This document shows positions 11,499 through 63,262 of a stretch of DNA of 64,000 bases, one piece after another. The notes below the pieces were generated by a model that was not told where the DNA came from, searched no databases, and worked only from the letters and a program-made list of their open reading frames with translations. Position numbers and translations under genes: made by a program. The number at the start of each line of letters is the position of its first letter. Position 1 is the first letter of the stretch. The DNA is from a virus (lineage: Duplodnaviria > Heunggongvirae > Uroviricota > Caudoviricetes): the IMG/VR virus record IMGVR_UViG_3300028048_000122; one strand, given 5' to 3'.

Positions 11499-12636
11499 AA
11501 GTCATCAGGTAAAAAGACTCATGATAAGGGTAAAACATTGAAGGCTCCTTTCAGCGGGCGTGATGCAGACGCGTCCGCTATCATCTGGGCTCAAAGGTGA
11601 AAGTCTTAAGAGCTCGGCATTTTATCACACCTCCTCAATTATTTCTCTACATTTCTCTTTTTATCGCGATCATTTCACTGGTCGTATTCCTCCATCTGGT
11701 TCCCGGACAAGACACAAAACTGTCTAATTCATAATGACCTCCGACCAGCTTTCGGGCTGGTTGATACTTGAAAGAGCTTGTATCAAAACCTTGTTACCCC
11801 CTTGGCATAGATACTGGTGTACTCCTTTCTGATTTTGTTTGTGGTGATTGGCTCCTTTTCATTTTACCTCTCACTCTTTCAGGTATCAACGAACCCGAAA
11901 CATGGGTTCCATGGTGATTTGCCTTTCTTTCTAAGGCCAGCTTCTAGGCTGGCTGATATTCACGATAACTATAATAATCATGGATATCAGCGACCCTAGA
12001 GGTCGAAAAAATTTAACAAACAGAAAACTATGGCAAAGCATACCTCGGTTATAAAACGCAATATCATGCGTCCGAGAATGGCCCCGTAATTGATACTAAC
12101 AAACTGCAGTAGATATGCCTGCAGTGAGTATGTCCTCTCTTAGTGATAAAAGCGGGCGGCACGTAAAGTGTAAACGCGCGTATCTTGAGGTCATGTGCAT
12201 GCAATGCCGAGCATTAAAGCAGGAACTGACAGGGTTCCATAAGTGCGTGAATGCAATTGGTGCATTCCTCCGCCGCCAGTTAAGGCTCAAGGCCTGATAA
12301 ACCTTGAGATACACGAGGTATTTATCGAGATGAAACTTTGCTGTGATGTCCTCAAAAAGGACTATAACTGTCAGTCGCCGTACAAGTAGCCCAAGGCAAT
12401 GATACAGATCAGTATGCAGCTTTATAGCAATCTATAATTCTGAATGACGGGTGAAAGTTGAGGGTCACAATCCCTTTGGAGCTAGAAAGAGGCAAGAAGC
12501 GCGTGTCGACGGGCGCGTTGCTCAGACTTGTCTTCTCCGTGGCTGAATAAATGCAGAGCATCAAGTTGTGTATAGGGAAACCTGATGTTTTGCCGTAGTT
12601 TTGTGTTTGTTAATAACACAGGTGAACTAACTATTT

Positions 12637-12813: not shown

Positions 12814-12888
12814 GTTGATGTAGCTCAATGGGGATAGAGCACCGAAACTGTAACTTCGGAGACTCAGGTTCAAGTCCTGACATCGGCT
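12814..12888 (+). tRNA. atypical tRNA, Tyr-like anticodon loop aCTGTAAc (GUA) with 8-nt loop, type I body
   Basis: Acceptor GTTGATG/CATCGGC (2 G-U pairs), D arm GCTC-AATGGGGATA-GAGC, stem CCGAA/TTCGG encloses 8 nt, T arm TCAGG-TTCAAGT-CCTGA. Confidence 0.5.
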
Positions 12889-12997: not shown

Positions 12998-13072
12998 GGT
13001 TCCGTAGTATAGTGGTCAGTATATCGGCTTGTCACGCCGAGGACACGAGTTCAATTCTCGTCGGAACCGCCA
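12998..13072 (+). tRNA. tRNA-Asp (anticodon GUC), CCA encoded
   Basis: Acceptor GGTTCCG/CGGAACC; loop TTGTCAC; T loop TTCAATT. Confidence 0.85.
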
Positions 13073-13199
13073 TCATGTCCCAGTATCAGGCTAACGTCTG
13101 ATCAGAGGCATACATTTTTCAGGGCGCCCACCGCAGCGCGGCACCACCGTTAATTACACGCCTAATGCCAAATGCGGTTAACTTGAATAATTCCCTGTA

Positions 13200-13475
13200 A
13201 AGGGATTAGATATAGTTGTTGACTCAGACGGTCGGCAACAAAACGGTCACTATCCGGCCGCTCCGTTAACTAAAATCCGTCAGCTACCGGAGGGAAATAC
13301 GATAGGTCCTGAGTAAGACCGAACTGCTCGCTTCTAATGTCCTTCTCCCAGGCTAACGTCTGGTAGGGGATACAAAAACAATCCGGTCACCGTCCGGCCA
13401 CTTATATCGGCTCACAACGGCCCTGATATAAGGGAAACAAGACGGATCCTGGGTACGATATAACTGCCCACGCCC
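13200..13475. repeat. degenerate tandem duplication (~140 bp units) in non-coding DNA
   Basis: Units near 13255-13330 and 13393-13470 share CCGGCC...GGGAAA-ACA..GG-CCTG-GTA-GA...AACTGC...CTAATG; the motif CAGGCTAACGTCTG also occurs twice (13087, 13339). Confidence 0.4.
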
Positions 13476-14855: not shown

Positions 14856-15243
14856 TTAATCTTCTCGCGTGACCTGACTGTTAGTTGCCAAGAGAACTAC
14901 ACAGCGAATAAAGATATACAGTGAAATATCAAGTAACTGATTGCAGTGAATGTCAAGTAACTGTATAGCCTCGGAGAGCCCCGAAAGAAACTTGGCCTGT
15001 GGCATCTCCAAAGGACACCGTAAACGCTAAAATGAATTACGGTATCATCCGGCCCTAGAGGACAAGCCGGATAAACGGAAATCGCCCCGGTTAAGTGCGA
15101 GGCTAAAATGACTTCATGTCTTCGGGCATGGTCACTGGACAAGGAAAAGTCTTTAAAACCTCTCACGGCTTTGGATGAGCGATAGATAAAAATCCAGACC
15201 ATCCTAAGGCGGTAGGATGTAAAATAAAGCCGCCCTCGATAAT

Positions 15244-15324
15244 GAGGCAGTAGCTCAAATGGCAGAGCAGACGGGAAAGCAAATGGGGCTTTCTTATGAT
15301 GGTGGTTCGACTCCTCCCTGCCTC
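15244..15324 (+). ncRNA. tRNA-like element with non-canonical anticodon arm
   Basis: Perfect acceptor GAGGCAG/CTGCCTC, normal D arm GCTC-AAATGGCA-GAGC, T arm GGTGG-TTCGACT-CCTCC. The anticodon arm is replaced by an 8-bp hairpin GGGAAAGC-AAATGGG-GCTTTCTT. Confidence 0.3.
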
Positions 15325-15429
15325 CCCTATATAATGCTCATAGTCTGGGGAACACCGGCCGGTAGACAGGTTCGATTCCTGTAATGAGCGCATGTTTCCC
15401 GATATCAAAGAATCGGGCACCAATGGCTA

Positions 15430-16235
15430 CGGGTGCGTATAAGTAGATAGCCAGCTTGAGTCACCGTGGACACTGGATGCCCCTATGTGTAGGAGCATGC
15501 CAGCTTTGCCCGAAGAAGGGGCGCGATCCACGACACAAAAGCTTTCCTTGCGGTGATAGGTTAACCGAAATAAGGGTCTCCATTAACCCTGGCATAGCGC
15601 CAAAAGAGATGACCATTATCGAAGCTTTCACTACCGTCTAACTGGGGAAGTAAGAACTGGATGGCCACGGTTTTTAGCACCCAGCAATAGACGATGTGAC
15701 AGCATTCCTTTCGGTGAAAGGTAAACCGAAAACCAACATTAAACCTGGTCCGCCCCGATAACGCCGTGACGTACAAACGGTAGCTCGGTAAAGTGGTAGC
15801 AAGGTTGCGCCAAGCGTACCTGGATTACTTTTATCTGGATAAACTAAAGTACACGGTTTATCAACTTAAGGATAATAACAGGCACGAAGGTGATTTAGCC
15901 TCCAAGGCGAAAAACGGCGTAGGTTAAGGGCACTACGTAATAAGCCGCCCGAGTCGGAAAAGCCGACATTAAACCTGCATAAGATATCTGCTTGTTATGG
16001 GGATAGAGCAGAGAAACCGGTGGCTACGGCATTAATCCGGTAAACGTCAAAGACATGTAGGGCTCCCCTGCGGGGTGAGTAAGGTACTTGACGGCCGCAA
16101 AAAGACTTTTAGACATCTCAAAGCGAGAACTCGGTCATGAAGACTAACCCATCTTCAAATTCTCCAGATGCTGCTTATCTTTTCGGGCATCAAAAATATG
16201 GTCTTGGCGAATATAATGTAATAGAAAGGTCAATA
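15430..16235 (+). ncRNA. candidate large structured ncRNA (ORF-free ~0.8 kb inside tRNA island)
   Basis: No ORF above 60 aa on the + strand; internal recurring motif CCGAAA...ACATTAAACCTG occurs three times; many local helices; context inside a phage tRNA array. Confidence 0.25.
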
Positions 16236-18466: not shown

Positions 18467-19714
18467 CAATTGACAAGGAAAAGTCAGTAAAACCCATCAC
18501 AGCAGGAGTGTCTGTGAATACGTTGAGCTCGCACCCAGGAGTCAATAGCCGTGTTGAAGTCCGGCAACGTAGAGGCCAAACACTTAGTCATAATAGCAGT
18601 GGCAGCCCGCAAGGCAAGTGTACGGTGCAAGTCCGTACAGACATTGGCAAGAGAGCTCCAGAACCTGCAGTAAAGCAGCAAAAATCCTCCGCCCACGTTC
18701 GCAACAGGTAAAGGGCGTAAAAGATGTAAACCTGTCCGGCCGAACGCAAAACCTGCCGATGTGCACTTAAGCAGGAAGGTTACTGCCGCCTTAAGAGAAG
18801 AAAAGTGACTCCATGGAGAACTCCCGTATGGTCCGTTCCGCTCCATGGTATAGCTATTGCGTTATGCTATGTAAAAAGTACGCACGTTCGGGCAAACGAA
18901 AGAACCCGCGTAAGGAACAACGAGAGAGATTCCTGTTTTCCCAGCGTTTTTGGTAGAAAAATGTTGCGCGCCTCTTGACCTGGCCAGTCAAGAAAAAGTC
19001 AGCGATATGACCAGGGGGTAATTGGCTTGAGCCCCCGTTATCATGGGAGAATAGACCTGGAATGGAGCCAGGACGGCATTTAGCGTCGTGCAGGGTACGC
19101 GCCCTCAGCGTAAGTTCAAATCTTACATCTCCCGCCTTCAAAATAAATTAAACAGGAGATAAATCGAATGTCTTATCCAGATTGGCTTGACGACGAGGAA
19201 GACAAGATTGACTTCTTTGTTTGATAAGGGGCCATCAGTAGTCCACTGCAAAGGACGAGTCTGTAGAATGATGGGTTGGCATCCTCCGTTTCGGGCGCTT
19301 CGTAAAAGTACCACGGGAGTTGCGGTAGAATTTGCAGCTACCGCAGAATTACTCCCGTAATTATCATGAGCACGAGGCCCAGAGGGCGATACCAAGCAAA
19401 AAGCTTGCAGTGCTCTTTCTATCATGTCCCTAATGAGGTTAACGTCTCGGCGGGGAGGAATCCGTTTTAGTTTATCCTGAGGAATAGGCAATGATGAGTG
19501 CGCACTTATCAGCTGAAACGAAGGGTAAATGAGAGCCCGTCGGCAACCGGGTGCGGAAATAGTATGCAGAGAACTATAACCTGCCGGAGACTCGATTGCC
19601 GTCATAGTTGTCGAGCGTAGAATACCACGTCAGGTGTATCGAAGGAGCTGGTAATCTCCTGACGTCAGCCAAAAACTTACCAGAGGCGGCACATGCCATG
19701 TCGTCTCGCCTTAC

Positions 19715-19789
19715 GGTTCCAAAGCTCAACGGTCGAGCAAACGCCTCATAAGCGTCAGGCTGAGGGTTCAAATCCCTCTGGAACCACCA
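19715..19789 (+). tRNA. tRNA-Met (anticodon CAU), CCA encoded
   Basis: Acceptor GGTTCCA/TGGAACC; D arm GCTC-AACGGTC-GAGC; loop CTCATAA; T arm GAGGG-TTCAAAT-CCCTC. Confidence 0.85.
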
Positions 19790-19992
19790 TAATGGAATAA
19801 GCGAGGTAAAAGTCTCGCGAATTCCTCTCTTTTCCTAAACACACATGAACAACTGCGCCCAGACAGTATAACAGCTGGGTAGTGTTTCGGTGTGCTGAGC
19901 ACGAAAGAAATTCAGCCTTCCACTTATGAGGGGTCGTTAAGAGGCGGGCGCATCGTCGTCGTAGGTTCGAACCCTACCGTCCCTCAACTCAT

Positions 19993-20062
19993 GTCAGCGT
20001 CGGCATAATGGTAATGCCAGGGCCGCAAGCCTGAAATGCGGGTTCGACTCCCGCCGCTGACC
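19993..20062 (+). ncRNA. tRNA-like element with truncated anticodon arm
   Basis: Perfect acceptor GTCAGCG/CGCTGAC, D arm GGCA-TAATGGTAA-TGCC and T arm GCGGG-TTCGACT-CCCGC, but only 19 nt between the D and T arms. Confidence 0.35.
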
Positions 20063-20215
20063 GTACGAGCCATATGGCGCGTCATTCTTTTCGAGGTTTT
20101 CAAGACTTAAACAAGAGAATCTTCGCAACATTATAGGCTTTGACTGGCGTCTGCTTTATGGCAGGAACACAGGGAGGCAAAGCTAGGGGCAGTTGGCAAC
20201 AGCTGCTCCGGTACT

Positions 20216-20297
20216 AGGGGTATCGCCAAGTGGCTAAAGGCACGGGACTTTGACTCCCGCATTCTTCGCGCTGGTTCGAATCCAGCTGCCCCTGCCA
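20216..20297 (+). tRNA. tRNA with anticodon UUG (Gln by anticodon) but type-II-like body, CCA encoded
   Basis: Acceptor AGGGGTA/TGCCCCT; 3-bp D stem with 11-nt loop; stem CGGGA/TCCCG; loop CTTTGAC; 10-nt variable region; T arm GCTGG-TTCGAAT-CCAGC. Confidence 0.55.
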
Positions 20298-20303
20298 TAT
20301 CAT

Positions 20304-20380
20304 GCGTCACTTAGCTCAACAGGCAGAGCCTACGGGTCTAGCTCGTAGAGATTCGGGTTCAAATCCCGAGGGACGCACCA
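20304..20380 (+). tRNA. putative amber-suppressor tRNA (anticodon CUA), CCA encoded
   Basis: Acceptor GCGTCAC/GGGACGC (one mismatch); D arm GCTC-AACAGGCA-GAGC; stem TACGG/TCGTA; loop GTCTAGC with U33 and centre CTA; T arm TCGGG-TTCAAAT-CCCGA. Confidence 0.5.
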
Positions 20381-20385
20381 TTATT

Positions 20386-20497
20386 ATGGGAAGCACCCAA
20401 GGTGGGTTGTAAGTGCCAAAGCAGGTTCGACTCCTGCCACCTCGTAAGAGGTTTGAGGAAAACAGCGGCCCGGTTCGATTCCGGGGCTTCCCGCTTT
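20386..20497 (+). ncRNA. composite tRNA-like element (two T-arm hairpins inside perfect GGGAAGC/GCTTCCC stem)
   Basis: Hairpins GCAGG-TTCGACT-CCTGC and CCCGG-TTCGATT-CCGGG; CCAAGGTGGG motif. Confidence 0.3.
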
Positions 20498-20907
20498 AAA
20501 ACTACCGTAGGGACTACGGAAAGTTACGCCTGTGGAGAGAGTGTAAGACGGATATATTCCAGTTCTCGACGAATCAGGAAGCTCACGCCTCTATAGGCGG
20601 GGGTAGTTCACCATGAAGCTGATGTATTGGTGTCAGTTTGTCTGGTGTGATAACGACACGAGATAAACTATATGGCCATATATTGGCACCGGCAAAAGCT
20701 CAAAACAAAAGTAAGTAGCCGGGGCAAGACCAGGACACCTCCTGGATTTTATTATGTACATCGAGGTTATTATGCATATGCTAATTATCCGAAAAGTTAG
20801 GTGTGGCTTCCGACTCGATGCGGCGAAGAGAGGGTAAAAGGCATAGTGAAGATATCTACAAAGGGCAACCGCGTAAGCGAGCTCCCCGCGAACCGGATAT
20901 CTATCAT

Positions 20908-20982
20908 GGCTTGGTAGTCTAGTGGTTAGGCGACGGTCTGCAAAACCGTTTTACGCCGGTTCGATTCCGGCCCAAGCCTCCA
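20908..20982 (+). tRNA. tRNA-Cys (anticodon GCA), CCA encoded
   Basis: Acceptor GGCTTGG/CCAAGCC; stem ACGGT/ACCGT; loop CTGCAAA; T arm GCCGG-TTCGATT-CCGGC. Confidence 0.85.
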
Positions 20983-20994
20983 TATCATGGGAAA

Positions 20995-21105
20995 CGCCAT
21001 GGTGGCGGAAAAGAGCATTCGGGTTCGATTCCCGACGCCCTGCGGGGTCCGTGGTGGTCAGCCTGGTTCGAGTCCAGGGTTTCCCTCGTTAATCATTTAG
21101 CCGTA
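20995..21105 (+). ncRNA. two tandem tRNA-like minihelices (GGTGG motif + T-arm hairpin)
   Basis: CCATGGTGGCG...TCGGG-TTCGATT-CCCGA and CCGTGGTGGTCA..CCTGG-TTCGAGT-CCAGG; no D/anticodon arms. Confidence 0.3.
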
Positions 21106-21556
21106 GTAATTCTGCGTATGTGAACCTTCCGATACAGCGCCTTAAACGCTCGGAAGCACGGGCTCACAACCCGTGGCAGCTAATATCCTCTGGTTTAAGC
21201 AGAGAACCGGCGTCAGCGAACTACTTTGCATGCGAGAGTTCATTAAGCTGACGAAAAATGGTAGCGGCGGCGAAGTCCTTGCGGTGGATGAGTAGCCAAG
21301 GAGTTCCTATATTGGACAGTAAGAGCGGGTTCGATTCCCGACACGTCGGCAGGCGTCCTGGTGGTAATAAGTGCTGGTGCGCGCAGACTTCAATTCTAGA
21401 TACGAAGTCTGTGCAATTCCAGCAGCTCCATGTGCGTAAACACATAAAAAGAAGCTGATAACCGTGGCGTCAGTTTTCCCTGGCCCGATGGGGACAATAA
21501 TATCATCGGGTTTTGCCGTAGGTGAGGGCGGATACTCATCGTTCACGGGCTATTAT

Positions 21557-21646
21557 GGAGATGTACCCAAGTGGTTTAAGGGGACTGCTTTGAAAGCAGA
21601 TAGGCCGCAGTGATGCGGTGCGCGGGTTCGAATCCTGCCATCTCCT
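21557..21646 (+). tRNA. tRNA-Ser (anticodon UGA), type II
   Basis: Acceptor GGAGATG/CATCTCC; 3-bp D stem CCC/GGG; loop TTTGAAA; variable-arm hairpin CCGCA-GTGA-TGCGG; T arm GCGGG-TTCGAAT-CCTGC; no CCA. Confidence 0.75.
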
Positions 21647-21692
21647 CTCTGTCACGACAAACGCCTTGACGTGGCGACAGAGCTTTTTACCA
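21647..21692 (+). terminator. hairpin + T-run after the tRNA array
   Basis: TCTGTCACG...CGTGGCGACAGAG followed by GCTTTTTACC. Confidence 0.4.
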
Positions 21693-21726
21693 AGATTTGT
21701 CAAAAAAGAAAAGGGGGAAGTTCTCT

Positions 21727-52946: not shown

Positions 52947-53705
52947 ATGAACTACTGGAATGCTAGACAACAGAATGCCGCCCGTGCACAGAGACGGACG
53001 GAAGAATTTGAAGCTAACTCTACTCCAGCCATGAGTCGTGCTTTGGCCAACACGGTTACGTATGGCGGCAAGAATAAAAAACCTGCGTATATACTGAATA
53101 CCAGCCCCTATGCGGATTTTGAAGTCGTACAGATGTCTACGACCGAAGCCATCTACGAGCTTGGTCATAATGATTGTATCGCGCTGAACTTCGCATCATA
53201 TAAGAATCCGGGTGGCGCTTTCTTGAAAGGTTCCTGCGCTCAGGAAGAATCGCTCTGCCACGAAAGCTGGCTATATAATATTCTGGCTCGGCAGACCGAC
53301 TATTATGACTGGAACAAGAAGCATCTGAACCGCGGGCTTTATCAAGACCGCGCTCTTTATACTCCTAACGTAGAGTTTGAACACGATGGCAAACGAGCCG
53401 TAGCTGATATCCTTACTTGCGCAGCGCCCAATCGTAGCATTATCGAGAAAGGATATACAAACTTTACTGAGGAAGAGAATAAGACGGCAATGATTGAGCG
53501 AATGGTTTTCATATCCCAGATTGTTTCTATGCATGCCCATAAAGATGTTCTCATTCTCGGCGCATGGGGATGTGGCGTATTCAAGCAAGACCCCAAATTT
53601 GTAGCAAGAATTATCCGCAATACGCCGTGGTATAATATCAATAAAGTTGTACTGGCGGTTATCGATAAGCCGACATATGAAATCTTTAAGAAGGTGTTTG
53701 CATGA
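52947..53705 (+). CDS. microbial PARG-like macrodomain protein (TIGR02452/DUF2263-type)
   Basis: NFASYKNPGGAFLKGSCAQEESLC matches the conserved PARG-like signature (AxxxPGGGxxxGxxAQEExLC). Confidence 0.55.
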   Translation: MNYWNARQQNAARAQRRTEEFEANSTPAMSRALANTVTYGGKNKKPAYILNTSPYADFEVVQMSTTEAIYELGHNDCIALNFASYKNPGGAFLKGSCAQEESLCHESWLYNILARQTDYYDWNKKHLNRGLYQDRALYTPNVEFEHDGKRAVADILTCAAPNRSIIEKGYTNFTEEENKTAMIERMVFISQIVSMHAHKDVLILGAWGCGVFKQDPKFVARIIRNTPWYNINKVVLAVIDKPTYEIFKKVFA

Positions 53706-59964: not shown

Positions 59965-61335
59965 ATGGAAGAACTTCGTATCGTCGTCAAGAGGAATGGC
60001 GACAAGGTTCCATATCAGACAAAGAAAATTTACGCGGCAATCGCCGGCGCCAATAAAGATTCCCGCGGAGAAATGTCTGCTCATGCCATTAGCAACGCGG
60101 TAATGCAGACAGACGTTAAGCTTCAGGGGAAGAGAGAAATCTCCGTGGAGCATATCCAGGATATGGTCGAAGAAACACTTATGGACAATAAGTATTTTAA
60201 GACGGCCAAGCAGTTCATTATCTACCGCGATCTTCACAATAAACGTCGGGAAGCTAATAAGAAGCTGATGGCATCGTACAGCGACCTCCTGTTTACCGAC
60301 GCAGAAGACATGGATTTAAAGCGTGATAATGCTAACATTAACACGGACGCCCCTATGGGCATCATGCTGAAACTGGGGACGGAAGGCGCCAAGTCATGGG
60401 CTTTGTCTTATGGCTTGCCGGAAAAATTCGTTAAGGCGCATAAAGAACATGCGATACATTATCATGACCTTGATTTCAGCTTTATCACTCTTAACTGTTT
60501 GCAGCAGGACTTGGGCAAAACCCTTAAGAATGGTTTTAATACCGGTCATGGTTTTTTGCGTGAACCGAACTCTATTCGTGCCGCAGCTTCATTGGCATGC
60601 ATCGCCATTCAGAGTTCTCAGAACGATTGTTTTGGAGGCCAGTCTATTAACGCCCTGGATTACGCTCTGGCTCCTTACGTAGAGAAGAGCTTTAAGAAAG
60701 CTCTTAAAAAAGTGCTTTTGAGAGCAGAGGATTGGTTGGGACGTGATACATATCATCTTATTCCTCAGTCAATCAAGGAAGATATCATTGATAAACTGAT
60801 TCAGGGAAACAATATTCGCTACGGCTTAAAAGGCGAAGAGTTAGAAGCTGCGGCAAAAGCAATTCATGCCGAGATATTCGGGAAAAAAGATATAGAGCAA
60901 TATCAAAGTTTTCGAGAGGCTAAAAAACTTTATCACATGGCTTGTCAAGACGTAGAAGAAGAAACCAAGCAGGCTATGGAAGCTATGATTCATAACTTCA
61001 ACAGTTTACATTCGCGCGCCGGATCTCAGGTCCCCTTCAGTTCTATCAATTTTGGTATGAACACTACCCCTGAAGGACGCTTGGTTATCGCTAAAACGTT
61101 GGATGCTATCGACGCCGGTCTTGGTCATGGCGAAACGCCGATATTCCCTATCTCGGTATTCACCTTAAAAGCCGGGGTTAATTACAATCCTGGAGATCCC
61201 AATTATGACTTATTTCAGCGGGCATGCGAAGTAAGCGCTAAGCGCTTGTATCCTAATTTCACTAATTTGGATGCGCCATATAATCTCAAGTACTATAAGC
61301 CCGACGATTACAACTCTTTCTTCGCATGCATGGGT
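59965..61335 (+). CDS. nrdD: anaerobic ribonucleoside-triphosphate reductase NrdD, exon 1
   Basis: N-terminal ATP-cone, class III RNR core; reading frame stops at TAA immediately after inferred 5' splice site. Confidence 0.75.
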
Positions 61336-62410
61336 TAACTGAAAAAGTTACACGATTTTCTACAGCCCATGTAAAACTCCTTAAATTGCTGGAAACCTAA
61401 ACAATATTTGTCAGCATCCCATAGTGACAAATCTATGGGTAATAAATTTGACGAAAAATATATTGCATGGCAATCAGCAGCCAAGCTTTAAGGAGTTCGT
61501 CAAATTGCATAAAGAAAACGGAAAATATTTTGTGGATTGCTCTTGTTGTAACAACGAATTTGAAGTAGGAAAAAATACATATTTTAAAAAGAAAGAACAC
61601 ATATGTCCTAAATGCCGCGTTAAAAACCAAAAAATGCCATTATATCCGTCGGAATATAGTCGGATTTTGATTTTGGTAACATGCCAAGAATGCGGCAAGG
61701 AATTTGCTATGAAAAAAGAGAATGTAGATAGCAGATTCTTAAAATATGGCAAGCATTTGTGCCCTTCATGTTCGAAAAAAGGCGACAAAAACCCATTCGC
61801 TGGGAAAAATTTTTCAGAAGATCAGCGAAGCAAGCTCTCCAAGATAAGAGCTGCATATTATAATGATGCAGAACTTGGAGAGCAACGGCGGCAAGAAGTA
61901 TCTCGAAAGACAACAGGAGAAAATAATCCAATGTATAAAGGCGCTGCTTTGAAAAGTGACTATACATGGAGAAATAAAGCCTTTCGAGAAAAGGTACTTA
62001 AACGAGATAACTATACTTGTCACAAATGTCACAAAAGGAAACAAGACAAAGAATTAAAAGCTCATCACAAAAATAGTTGCAACTGGGACATTAAAGGTAG
62101 ACTTGATATTGATAATGGCGCAACTCTTTGCGATGAATGTCACAAATTATTTCATCGTCTTTATGGCTACGGCGATAATACCGTAGAGCAATTTGAAGAA
62201 TTCCTTAAAGAAGGTTCAGAGACTATCGAAATTGCTGAAGAAGCAAAAGTAGAGTAGGCCGCAAGTGCGGTCCAAAAAGGGAGTACAATAAAAATAGTAT
62301 ATTTATTGTAATGATATAGTCCGACACCTGTAGAAATACAGGTCACATGCGGAAACGGTATGTGAAAAAACTGAAAGTGTAGAACAAGAACTATGGACAA
62401 CGTTAACGGG
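61336..62410 (+). mobile_element. group I self-splicing intron in nrdD carrying an HNH homing endonuclease ORF
   Basis: Exon-1 end CATGGGT pairs with intron GCCCATG at 61365-61371 (P1 with U-G at the splice site). The intron ends in G at 62410. The downstream frame continues NrdD (GSRGNFSFATINLP...CGF glycyl-radical region). The insert is AT-rich. Confidence 0.6.
61424..62257 (+). CDS. HNH homing endonuclease (intron-encoded)
   Basis: Several Zn-ribbon CxxC pairs; HNH core TCHKCHKRKQDKELKAHHKNSCNWDIKGRLDIDNGATLCDECHKLFH. Confidence 0.75.
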   Translation: MTNLWVINLTKNILHGNQQPSFKEFVKLHKENGKYFVDCSCCNNEFEVGKNTYFKKKEHICPKCRVKNQKMPLYPSEYSRILILVTCQECGKEFAMKKENVDSRFLKYGKHLCPSCSKKGDKNPFAGKNFSEDQRSKLSKIRAAYYNDAELGEQRRQEVSRKTTGENNPMYKGAALKSDYTWRNKAFREKVLKRDNYTCHKCHKRKQDKELKAHHKNSCNWDIKGRLDIDNGATLCDECHKLFHRLYGYGDNTVEQFEEFLKEGSETIEIAEEAKVE

Positions 62411-63262
62411 CCGTCCCAAAGCGGCTCTCGTGGCAATTTCTCGTTTGCGACGATAAATCTTCCCATGGTAGCTCTGGACGCTAAGGGCGATATCAATAAG
62501 TTCTTTGAATTATTCGATGAACGTATCCTGTTAGCCAAGGAATACTTGGAATATCGTTATAACATTATCGCTCATAAACAGGTGAAAAATTTCCCGTTTT
62601 TAATGGGCGAAGGGCTTTGGCTCGACAGTGAAAAATTGGGACCGGAGGATGAAATCGGGGAGGTATTGAAGCATGCGTCTATTTCGATTGGCTATGTCGG
62701 CCTTGCGGAGTGTCTTGTTGCTCTTACCGGTGCTCATCACGGAGTATCGGAAGATGCGCAAAAGCTCGGGCTCAAAATAATTGGTCATCTCAGAAACATG
62801 ACGGACAAATTCACGGAAGAAACTCATATGAATTGGTCAACCTTCGCTACTCCAGCCGAGTCATTCGCCGGCGTTGCGTGCCGCGCATGTAAGAAGAAAT
62901 ACGGCCAGATTAAAGGAGTAACTGATCGTGAATATTTCACGAACGGAAACCATGTTCCCGTATATTATCCCATCAAGGCTATTGATAAGATTCGTATTGA
63001 GGCGCCATACCATGCACTGGCTAACGCCGGAAACATTTCGTATATTGAGATGGATGGCGACCCTACTAAGAATGTGAAAGCGTTCGAGAAAATTGTACGG
63101 GCCATGCATGACGCGAATATGAGTTATTTTTCTATCAACCATGCTGTAGATCGCGACCCCGTATGTGGGTTCACGGGCATCATCGAAAACGAATGTCCGC
63201 ACTGCCATCGTCACGAAGAAACTGTTATTAACAGCATCAAGAATGTAAAGAGGGTTCAATAA
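62411..63262 (+). CDS. nrdD: NrdD exon 2 (glycyl-radical and Zn-ribbon C-terminus)
   Basis: GSRGNFSFATINLP (class III RNR signature), DPVCGFTG glycyl-radical motif, CPHCH C-terminal Zn site. Confidence 0.7.
   Translation, partial: PSQSGSRGNFSFATINLPMVALDAKGDINKFFELFDERILLAKEYLEYRYNIIAHKQVKNFPFLMGEGLWLDSEKLGPEDEIGEVLKHASISIGYVGLAECLVALTGAHHGVSEDAQKLGLKIIGHLRNMTDKFTEETHMNWSTFATPAESFAGVACRACKKKYGQIKGVTDREYFTNGNHVPVYYPIKAIDKIRIEAPYHALANAGNISYIEMDGDPTKNVKAFEKIVRAMHDANMSYFSINHAVDRDPVCGFTGIIENECPHCHRHEETVINSIKNVKRVQ

Follow-up and report, generated by a model that had tools for sequence, protein, structure and literature searches.

tRNA-like elements in the RNA island

The 64,000-nucleotide stretch of phage DNA analyzed here (IMG/VR record IMGVR_UViG_3300028048_000122, Caudoviricetes), referred to as the window, carries an RNA island of ~9.6 kb (12.0-21.7 kb), mostly noncoding, that contains a ROOL RNA, transfer RNA (tRNA) genes, a few small open reading frames (ORFs), and several kilobases of noncoding sequence. 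A preliminary description made from the sequence alone had reported an array of truncated tRNA-like minihelices in this island. The T-loop motif GGTTCRANYCC occurs 18 times in the window, every copy on the + strand, compared to 0.33 ± 0.64 copies in the shuffled window, where 0 of 100 shuffles reached 18. ARAGORN identified 10 tRNAs in the window, and half of the motifs (9/18) fall inside them; the tenth tRNA, tRNA-Asp at 12998, has a T-loop that differs from GGTTCRANYCC. The nine remaining motifs (at 15304, 15369, 19964, 20041, 20424, 20472, 21022, 21065, and 21328) lie outside the ARAGORN tRNAs, at the sites where T-arm hairpins had been described, and resolve into seven tRNA-like elements, designated A to G, none of which is called by ARAGORN within the window. 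These elements, together with an eighth noncanonical member of the array, are as follows.

15244-15325, + strand: element A, with acceptor GAGGCAG/CTGCCTC, an ordinary D-arm, and a T-arm; discriminator C; CCA not encoded
15336-15390, + strand: element B, ~55 nt, predicted to fold into acceptor GCTCAT/ATGAGC, a short hairpin, and a T-arm; no anticodon arm or CCA
19928-19986, + strand: element C, ~58 nt, predicted to fold into acceptor GAGGGGU/GUCCCUC, a 26-nt insert with UAAGAGG, and a T-arm
19993-20062, + strand: element D, a full tRNA body with the 7-bp acceptor GTCAGCG/CGCTGAC, the D-arm GGCAT-AATGGTA-ATGCC, and a T-arm
20388-20492, + strand: element E, 105 nt, two T-arms within the outer stem GGGAAGC/GCTTCCC; discriminator G; CCA not encoded
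20989-21085, + strand: element F, 97 nt, two T-arms; discriminator U; CCA not encoded
21300-21430, + strand: element G, third member of the E/F family, with the 6-bp acceptor GGAGUU/AGCUCC
12814-12888, + strand: tRNA-shaped gene labeled tRNA-??? by ARAGORN, with an 8-nt anticodon loop (ACUGUAAC); CCA not encoded

This inventory modifies the earlier picture in several respects. The interval from 19930 to 21110 had been described as holding at least six elements; six T-arms are indeed present, but they belong to four RNAs (C, D, E, and F). The related copies proposed at 15244, at 15345, and near 21290 correspond to A, B, and G, respectively, and G is matched across the full model length by a covariance model of E and F (R1) at 25 bits, with an E-value of 0.007 that is rough, as are all covariance-model E-values given here. 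"Truncated minihelices" is an apt term for B and C, whereas D and A come close to full tRNAs but have no usable anticodon loop, and E, F, and G are larger composites. Element D is not truncated, because its acceptor, D-arm, and T-arm are all present and it scores 39.8 bits with the Rfam tRNA model (RF00005), for which the gathering score is 29 bits. The nesting of two T-arms within one stem, noted originally for E, is not peculiar to E, as F is identical in plan (GGGAAAC/GTTTCCC). Finally, the word CNNGGTGG, from the C(C/A)NGGTGG box thought to unite the elements, is not enriched (19 occurrences versus 14.7 expected), but the placement and pairing of the box are conserved.

Along with D, element A exceeds the Rfam tRNA gathering score (38.8 bits), and B, C, E, F, and G fall below it. 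In A, 24 nt stand at the place where the model expects 15; the anticodon stem is predicted to be stretched to ~8 bp and to end in a loop, AAAUGGG, that lacks U33. The anticodon arm of D has a 4-bp stem and a 5-nt loop (CGCAA), with 4 nt for the six loop positions of the model, and D has a discriminator C and no encoded CCA. Element C, which has neither an anticodon arm nor an encoded CCA, gives a weak Rfam match to tRNA-Sec (19.5 bits versus a threshold of 47). An anticodon arm with a 5-bp stem, a 7-nt loop, U33, and a purine at position 37 was found in none of A to G, and in E, F, and G a pyrimidine (C or U) takes position 37 of what would be the anticodon loop. Four routes of anticodon removal are represented, namely, deletion, a short loop, a lengthened stem, and substitution by a T-arm. 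On sequence grounds, A to G have no usable anticodon and would not decode. CCA is encoded by eight of the nine canonical tRNAs, the exception being tRNA-Ser(TGA), compared to none of the eight noncanonical elements. Such noncanonical members account for 7 or 8 of the ~17 tRNA-shaped genes in the window.

Two-T-arm elements and their conservation

Elements E and F are paralogues, each with a perfect 7-bp acceptor stem around two different T-arms. Their common layout is, from 5' to 3', acceptor, mini-D1, a linker with (A/U)AAG(A/U)GC, T-arm 1, a tetraloop hairpin, mini-D2, T-arm 2, and acceptor. The C(C/A)NGGTGG box is the mini-D, a 3- to 5-bp hairpin with GG in a loop of 3 to 5 nt, like a minimal D-arm; mini-D2 is a second loop that bears GG, and the hairpin after T-arm 1 consists of 3 to 5 bp capped by a GNRA or UNCG tetraloop. 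The parts of the three elements, all on the + strand, are listed below.

E, 20388-20394: acceptor, 5' side
E, 20395-20407: mini-D1, ACCCA-AGG-UGGGU
E, 20421-20437: T-arm 1
E, 20439-20452: variable-arm-like hairpin, CCUC-GUAA-GAGG
E, 20452-20462: mini-D2, UUU-GAGGA-AAA
E, 20469-20485: T-arm 2
E, 20486-20492: acceptor, 3' side
F, 20989-20995: acceptor, 5' side, GGGAAAC
F, 20996-21006: mini-D1, GCCA-UGG-UGGC
F, 21019-21035: T-arm 1
F, 21037-21048: hairpin, (G)CCC-UGCG-GGG(U)
F, 21049-21057: box CCGUGGUGG
F, 21062-21078: T-arm 2
F, 21079-21085: acceptor, 3' side, GTTTCCC
G, 5' half: hairpin UCC-UAUAUU-GGA and linker GUAAGAGC
G, 21326-21340: T-arm 1
G, 21344-21355: hairpin, CGUC-GGCA-GGCG
G, 21357-21364: box CCUGGUGG
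G, 21373-21423: second arm, GCUGG...CCAGC, with a ~34-nt hairpin inserted in the loop

Mini-D2 of F is CC-GUGGU-GG. In A to G, an acceptor stem (6 to 7 bp in A to F and 6 bp in G) is stacked on a T-stem of 5 bp whose 7-nt loop has the form UUCRANY. The most plausible ancestor of E, F, and G is a class II (Ser-like) tRNA whose anticodon arm gave way to a T-arm and which acquired a second GG loop. R1 cross-matches class II tRNA-Ser genes of the phage and its relatives at 22 to 28 bits, and similarity is also seen between the 5' portion of E (CCCAAGGUGGGUUGUAAGUG) and the D-arm of tRNA-Ser(TGA) (CCCAAGUGGUUUAAGGG). In addition, the tetraloop hairpin of all three elements occupies the position of the long variable arm, and F and tRNA-Ser(TGA) have in common U73 and the lack of an encoded CCA.

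Relatives of the window were located through the neighboring SPFH gene and DNA patterns; these contigs (L123/L124, L140, L270, L271, and L268) are jumbo-phage contigs of 206 to 235 kb. A blastn search of positions 19700 to 21700 against GenBank phages returned only generic tRNA-Gln similarity and no close relative. Identity to L140 is 0.95 for C, 0.94 for D, 0.91 for E, 0.97 to 0.98 for F, and 0.90 to 0.92 for G, with 0.99 for tRNA-Cys, compared to 0.53 to 0.82 for the spacers (gaps counted). The real tRNA-Gln and the amber-suppressor tRNA that lie between D and E in the window are swapped for other tRNAs in L140. Elements A and B are 95% and 94% identical, respectively, to their L123 orthologues, and F is 97 to 100% identical in L123, L140, L270, L268, and L271. 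With R1, orthologues of E were recovered in L140, L270, and L271 at 91.5 to 97.9 bits, in addition to the match to G.

The substitutions that separate these orthologues preserve the helices. In L123, a G.U pair in the long stem of A is changed to A-U, and a compensatory change from U-A to A-U is found in the acceptor of B (GCTCAA/TTGAGC). In L140, the T-stem of C shows a compensatory change from GUAGG/CCUAC to GCAGG/CCUGC (U-A to C-G), and the acceptor of D changes from U-A to U.G and from C-G to U.G. The same contig has CGCC-GACA-GGCG for the CGUC-GGCA-GGCG hairpin of G (U.G to C-G, both loops GNRA) and UUC/GAA for UCC/GGA. Among E sequences, mini-D1 changes from ACCCA/UGGGU to AAUC-UGGU-GGUU, the T-arm 1 stem from GCAGG/CCUGC to GUGGG/CCCAC, and the tetraloop from GUAA to GCAA. 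In a 10-sequence alignment of E and F, 99.4% of cells pair and 7 of 17 pairs have changes on both sides, a count equaled in 0 of 500 shuffles and compared to 0 to 1 in slid controls, although the model guided this alignment and some of the signal comes from comparing the paralogues E and F with each other. We also considered a long-range pairing of the CCAUGG and CCGUGG boxes that is predicted for F of the window and rejected it: neither the orthologues in L140, L123, and L271 nor the paralogue F' described below can form this pairing, and the local hairpins persist. The GGUGG/CCACC sequence around T-arm 1, a possible inner "acceptor," is invariant.

Because the elements are far better conserved than the spacers and their stems are compensated, A to G are, as far as comparison of the contigs allows us to judge, not decaying pseudogenes. 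The preliminary description had accepted that they would be decayed tRNA pseudogenes if they were not conserved in related phages and gave no discrete small RNAs; they are conserved there. Its suggestion of a new small-RNA family gains support from the excess of conservation over the spacers, the compensated stems, and the absence of an Rfam family.

The L271 contig carries, at positions 11 to 106, the F paralogue F', which has acceptor GGGAGC/GCUCCC, T-arm 1 stem UCGAG/CUCGA, and mini-D1 CAC-GGUU-GUG. T-stem 2 of F' is 6 bp, and the 12-bp acceptor/T helix is kept as 6 + 6. Between F and F', the acceptor and mini-D1 differ throughout, and the inner core is ~93% identical, unpaired linkers included. 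Since the core stays constant while the outer parts change, these paralogues suggest recognition of a specific sequence, that is, a sequence-specific partner that would read more than the helices alone.

In the first 10,000 nt of L123, a contig of 235 kb, 10 of the 14 T-arm motifs upstream of the SPFH gene are outside canonical tRNA calls. That contig also has extra tRNA-like elements, absent from the window, at ~338, 590, 2361, 4690, and 7385.

Elements of this type extend beyond the relatives of the window. The figures from our scans of sequence collections cover the matches listed, and the totals are lower bounds. Two T-loops spaced 25 to 45 nt apart are present in at least 120 viral contigs, and in ~40% of the listed double-T-loop matches, T-arm 1 is in a normal tRNA and T-arm 2 is in a short tRNA-like element directly after it. 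Among the matches listed, an outer 7-bp stem closes both arms in 28 of 117, compared to 3 to 6 of 117 in shifted control windows, and GG-loop hairpins lie between the T-arms in 74 of 128, compared to 47 ± 4.8 in shuffles. Some contigs, such as L063 and L118, have three T-arms within one closure. R1 gave full-length matches to unrelated viral elements in L038 (37 bits) and L098 (33.5 bits), as well as matches at 21 to 26 bits in L067, L118, L023, L009, and L105. We propose a class of RNAs that lack both an anticodon loop and CCA and in which one acceptor-type stem surrounds at least two nonidentical T-arms, each after a short GG hairpin or loop. This definition applies to E, F, and G; to elements of L038, L098, L067, L118, L009, and L105; and to those of phages NootNoot, Faust, Patelgo, and Comrade.

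Several carriers are cultured phages. L063 is Streptomyces phage NootNoot, whose triple-T-arm element (NC_042009, 85174-85313) has no annotation and is flanked by tRNA-Gly and tRNA-Arg. Conserved copies are present in Faust, Patelgo, and Comrade (three genera), and the Comrade and Karp records label the element tRNA-Ser. Its outer stems covary wholesale (GGTGAATA/TATTCACC, CACAGAGAG/CTCTCTGTG, and GTACAGAGG/CCTCTGTAC), as does a mini-D (GUGA-UGG-UCAC versus CUGA-UGG-UCAG). MAFFT lost register on short hairpins and on the Streptomyces outer stem, and those helices were read directly, without pair counts. L105 is Aeromonas phage Aeh1, whose double-T-arm element (AY266303, ~96650-96770) is 86 to 100% conserved in 13 records of T4-like Aeromonas phages and is labeled "tRNA-OTHER" in phage PX29. 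In the contigs L092, L023, L091, and L103, a GOLLD RNA adjoins such elements, and in L023 and L091 the double-T-arm element begins 6 nt past the GOLLD 3' end. The hairpin GGGUAGCUCCC is found upstream of the last T-arm in L092, L066, L017, and L074 and in L266/L392-L394; its presence in GOLLD-adjacent metagenomic elements and in Streptomyces-phage elements suggests a module conserved across distant phages. Two further unannotated gaps with T-arm elements occur in the tRNA array of NootNoot (L266, NC_042009), at 661-921 and 1211-1533; one element, with the acceptor GGGTTTG/CAAATCC, shows a long hairpin where an anticodon arm would be, and the other is a tRNA-like gene with a ~70-nt insertion in the anticodon region.

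Two pattern searches added no further carriers among the matches listed. A GGGAARC..T-loop pattern was unspecific in viral contigs, with at least 120 loci and E/F only in the relatives already known, and a pattern for the Streptomyces element found only NootNoot itself in IMG/VR.

Known RNA classes and other features of the window

No Rfam family covers A to G or the double-T-arm elements of the other contigs, and our literature searches on phage tRNA-like minihelices and decoys returned no description of these RNAs. The closest parallels in setting are the species 1 (rnaC) and species 2 (rnaD) RNAs of phage T4, which are also non-tRNA small stable RNAs, with no assigned function, inside a phage tRNA cluster. 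T4 rnaC likewise ends in a canonical T-arm (CCGGGUUCGAAUCCCGG) beside a terminal stem; however, it has a single T-arm and a different body, rnaD has no T-arm, and R1 found no match in the T4 tRNA locus at an E-value of ≤1. The mascRNA of MALAT1 and the t-elements of plant mitochondria are tRNA-shaped, nondecoding RNAs that are cut by RNase P and RNase Z. Unlike the elements described here, they are single cloverleaf-like units of eukaryotic or organellar transcripts and are not known to have a second T-arm or a phage context.

Both YrlA (PMC4201824) and the tRNA-like domain of transfer-messenger RNA (tmRNA) mimic the elbow of acceptor, T-arm, and D-loop without an anticodon. YrlA, however, requires a Ro60-binding stem and a neighboring rsr gene, and tmRNA has a tag reading frame and pseudoknots, neither of which is present here. 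A Pfam scan of 54 window ORFs detected no TROVE/Ro60 domain, and YrlA had no Rfam match; ARAGORN called no tmRNA, and Rfam gave only 15-nt T-arm fragments at 13.6 bits versus a threshold of 47. The ROOL and GOLLD models of Rfam have no overlap with A to G, the ROOL of the window being separate.

The allo-tRNAs and other noncanonical class II tRNAs have nonstandard geometry and are found in phages and rumen Clostridia; some have been discussed as possible regulatory noncoding RNAs (Mukai et al. 2017, PMC5389517). Like E, F, and G, they are kin of Ser-type tRNAs with long variable arms, and the 6/6 helix split of F' is likewise not 7/5. In contrast, the 12-bp acceptor/T helix of allo-tRNAs is split 8/4 or 9/3, and these tRNAs possess a functional anticodon arm, are aminoacylated, and decode (PMC5389517), whereas E and F are 7/5, F' is 6/6, and a variable-arm-like hairpin is present without an anticodon arm. 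Elements E, F, and G further differ from them in that a T-arm takes the anticodon-arm position, a GG hairpin has been added, and CCA is missing. A possible functional parallel is provided by the tRNA-Tyr genes of phages T5 and T6, which counter the cleavage of the variable loop of class II tRNA-Tyr by Septu and retron-Eco7 and have been discussed as "decoy or supplement" (PMC13096335). There, too, phage-encoded tRNA bodies blunt nucleases that act outside the anticodon; the T5 and T6 molecules are complete decoding tRNAs, however, and by analogy A to G could be pure decoys only. Mimicry of tRNA as such is known, but to our knowledge an acceptor stem around two or three modules of T-arm and GG hairpin, recurring across phage lineages, is undescribed.

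Other features of the window, all on the + strand, are listed here.

12020-12603, + strand: full-length ROOL RNA (Rfam RF03087, 215 bits), at the 5' start of the island
13088-13105 and 13349-13366, + strand: two copies of the word CAGGCTAACGTCTG, in the noncoding stretch from tRNA-Asp to tRNA-His
15392-16192, 18467-19700, and 20609-20907, + strand: long noncoding blocks, 75 to 96% conserved in L123, L140, and L270
20304-20380, + strand: tRNA with a CTA anticodon (amber suppressor; labeled "Pyl" by ARAGORN), 33.1 bits with Rfam
52947-53705, + strand: ORF with a microbial-type PARG/macro domain (E-value, 9e-27)
59965-61338 and 62393-63262, + strand: nrdD in two ORFs, interrupted by an ORF at 61424-62257 with weak HNH/NUMOD3 matches

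The tRNA-Ser(GCT) gene begins 33 nt past the ROOL 3' end, and a ROOL copy in the relative L122 is 79% identical to that of the window. The three long noncoding blocks had no Rfam match; they may be further structured RNAs or phage promoters. Words repeated in the noncoding sequence include AAAACCAACATTAAACCTG, at 15729 and 15959, and TTGACAAGGAAAAGTC..TAAAACC, at 15133 and 18467. The CTA tRNA hints at TAG recoding in part of the phage genome. Proteins encoded in the window include gyrase A and B, ClpX/ClpP, UvrD, RecA, primase, an NAD-dependent ligase, and the anaerobic NrdD. This protein set and the size of the related contigs mark the phage as a jumbo phage, and its host is probably anaerobic. 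The split in nrdD looks like a homing-endonuclease intron or a similar insertion, and the PARG/macro protein may reverse ADP-ribosylation, which would make its gene a candidate for counter-defense.

Processing and possible function of the elements

An acceptor/T-arm helix with U at -1 is a substrate of bacterial RNase P, and a 3' trailer that lacks CCA is cut by RNase Z, an enzyme that CCA blocks. Elements A to F start at a G with AT at -2/-1, as do the real tRNAs, and for those directly downstream of a tRNA or another element the gap is 6 to 10 nt, as between real tRNAs (CCA-TATCAT-G before F and CCA-TTATTAT-G before E). E and F each lie 6 to 7 nt after a real tRNA, and C-D and A-B are adjacent pairs. 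Because the AT leader is common to the elements and the real tRNAs, we infer a tRNA-type 5' end; because no element encodes CCA, the 3' end would differ from that of the canonical tRNAs of the phage and be released by RNase Z.

We consider it very probable that A to G are functional phage-encoded RNAs derived from tRNAs whose body was kept and whose anticodon was lost. The retained parts would form an elbow, in which the acceptor is stacked on the T-arm and the T-loop meets a GG-bearing partner loop. What such RNAs do is a separate matter, on which we are more guarded: that they act as nondecoding mimics of the tRNA body (decoys or sponges), processed by RNase P and RNase Z, is possible, at somewhat less than an even chance. 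In this scheme, the elements would be transcribed together with the tRNA/ROOL island, host RNase P would cut at G+1, as the spacing and AT leader shared with real tRNAs imply, and RNase Z would free the 3' end, CCA not being encoded. Small RNAs of ~55 to 130 nt would then accumulate that neither decode nor, without an encoded CCA, are charged by default. As mimics, they would tie up a factor, of host or phage origin, that recognizes the elbow, the variable arm, or the acceptor helix rather than the anticodon; by analogy, one such target could be a tRNA-directed defense nuclease of the kind that cuts the variable loop of class II tRNA-Tyr. The outcome would be that the real tRNA pool is shielded or spared and translation is undisturbed. 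We lean toward mimicry because the inner cores are constrained nucleotide by nucleotide and D-arms and GG loops are retained, because the elements are packed by tRNAs, where another cut releases nothing, and because defenses that cut tRNAs outside the anticodon are known (PMC13096335). A broader proposition, which we offer more tentatively still, is that many phage lineages encode modular "multi-elbow" tRNA mimics, either as decoys or sponges for readers of the tRNA body or as ligands of ROOL/GOLLD cages, and thus possess an RNA-level device for counter-defense or host takeover. Candidate targets could include tRNA-directed immune nucleases or toxins and tRNA-processing or tRNA-modifying enzymes.

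A number of observations weigh against these readings. Folding z-scores are unexceptional, from -0.6 to -2.2 for the elements (-2.2 being that of D) and +0.4 for the G region. The set of orthologues is small, with about five related contigs, and the E/F covariation partly reflects paralogues in a model-fitted alignment. Element G is missing from L270, and L121, L125, and L127 lack the whole island upstream of SPFH; the elements are therefore dispensable accessories, and the island is a variable region. In L121, L125, L126, and L127, SPFH is 82 to 83% identical to that of the window, and no T-loop motif was found around the gene (10 kb upstream for L121, L125, and L127). The Pfam scan of the 54 window ORFs detected no tRNA-processing, Ro60, RtcB, or CCA enzymes, that is, no encoded partner protein. 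Moreover, with no CCA encoded, a role as decoys for toxins of the CCA end is less plausible, unless the CCA is supplied later.

The same features of processing could serve a different end. As punctuation, the elements would be tRNA-shaped cleavage signals for RNase P and RNase Z that define the ends of ROOL, of the noncoding blocks, and of the messenger RNAs of small ORFs, or they would stabilize neighboring RNAs against exonucleases. The missing CCA in all eight elements, which would make them RNase Z substrates, and the tRNA-like leader fit this explanation, as does their placement: A and B precede the conserved noncoding block at 15392-16192, E precedes 20493-20907, an element follows GOLLD after 6 nt in L023 and L091, and a tRNA follows the ROOL of the window after 33 nt. 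An acceptor with one T-arm would suffice for cleavage, however, leaving the second T-arm, the mini-Ds, and the near-invariant unpaired linkers unexplained. In addition, most elements lie 6 to 10 nt from a tRNA or from one another (F abuts G in L123), where an extra cut is redundant, and the spacers that would be liberated are poorly conserved or deleted. Taking punctuation and stabilization together, we regard this account as the main rival to mimicry but find it doubtful. A partnership with ROOL or GOLLD nanocages, for example, as cargo that docks in or on the cage through its T-loops, is improbable. ROOL lies in the same island and GOLLD stands beside double-T-arm elements in four contigs, but this co-occurrence may merely reflect a common home in tRNA islands, and nhmmer, with its limited sensitivity, found GOLLD or ROOL in few of ~270 loci.

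The remaining explanations would deny the elements a function of their own or give them an ordinary one. Phage tRNA arrays turn over quickly, as seen in the replacement of the real tRNAs between D and E in L140, and the elements could be functionless pseudogenes or duplication debris; the loss of G in L270 and the modest folding scores agree with this. Yet the elements are as conserved as tRNA-Cys and far above the spacers, compensatory changes hold every stem paired, and the architecture recurs in unrelated phages with covarying stems; decay is largely refuted and very unlikely. Genuine but unusual decoding, for example, by a class II tRNA-Ser(CGA), is suggested by annotation: ARAGORN reads the F orthologue at L123:9357-9452 as tRNA-Ser(cga), the Comrade, Karp, and PX29 records carry tRNA labels, R1 cross-matches tRNA-Ser genes, and D and A pass the Rfam tRNA threshold. 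The L123 call arises because T-arm 1 is spaced as an anticodon arm would be and CGA occurs within its UUCGAUU loop. This "anticodon" is part of UUCGA in a loop with the GG/CC closure of T-loops, and it varies in the manner of a T-loop: F of L271 has A for G57, a neutral change in a T-loop that would make an anticodon CGA read CAA. Together with the pyrimidine at position 37 in E, F, and G, the 5-nt loop of D, the 8-bp stem of A without U33, three such loops in a single Streptomyces-phage RNA, and the lack of CCA in every element of a phage whose own tRNAs encode it, this leaves decoding with slighter odds than decay. Least credible are integration scars or attachment sites, in which an integrase would have left duplicated 3' parts of tRNAs. 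Most of the closed double-T-loop matches listed for cellular genomes (T-loops 25 to 45 nt apart) do consist of a tRNA and, after it, an exact copy of that tRNA's 3' portion. In E, F, and the viral closed set, however, the two T-arms differ, with 10 to 14 of 17 positions in common, 10 of them set by the search pattern itself. Both arms lie within the outer stem, the scan of window ORFs turned up no integrase, and the related contigs are those of jumbo phages.

The tRNA arrays of phages are generally taken to assist codon usage or to make up for tRNAs that host defenses destroy. The elements described here suggest that conserved RNAs with a tRNA body but no anticodon can account for much of an array. 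Programs that find tRNAs miss or mislabel them; ARAGORN takes the T-loop UUCGA for an anticodon CGA and reports tRNA-Ser, which skews phage tRNA counts and the conclusions on codon usage drawn from them. Cultured carriers, including Streptomyces phages NootNoot and Comrade and Aeromonas phages Aeh1 and PX29, make the question of function directly testable. If the elements are processing modules, they would explain how the ends of large phage RNAs such as ROOL and GOLLD are formed. If they are decoys or sponges, they would constitute an RNA-only layer in the contest between phage and host over tRNAs and would reveal which parts of a tRNA the host machinery inspects.

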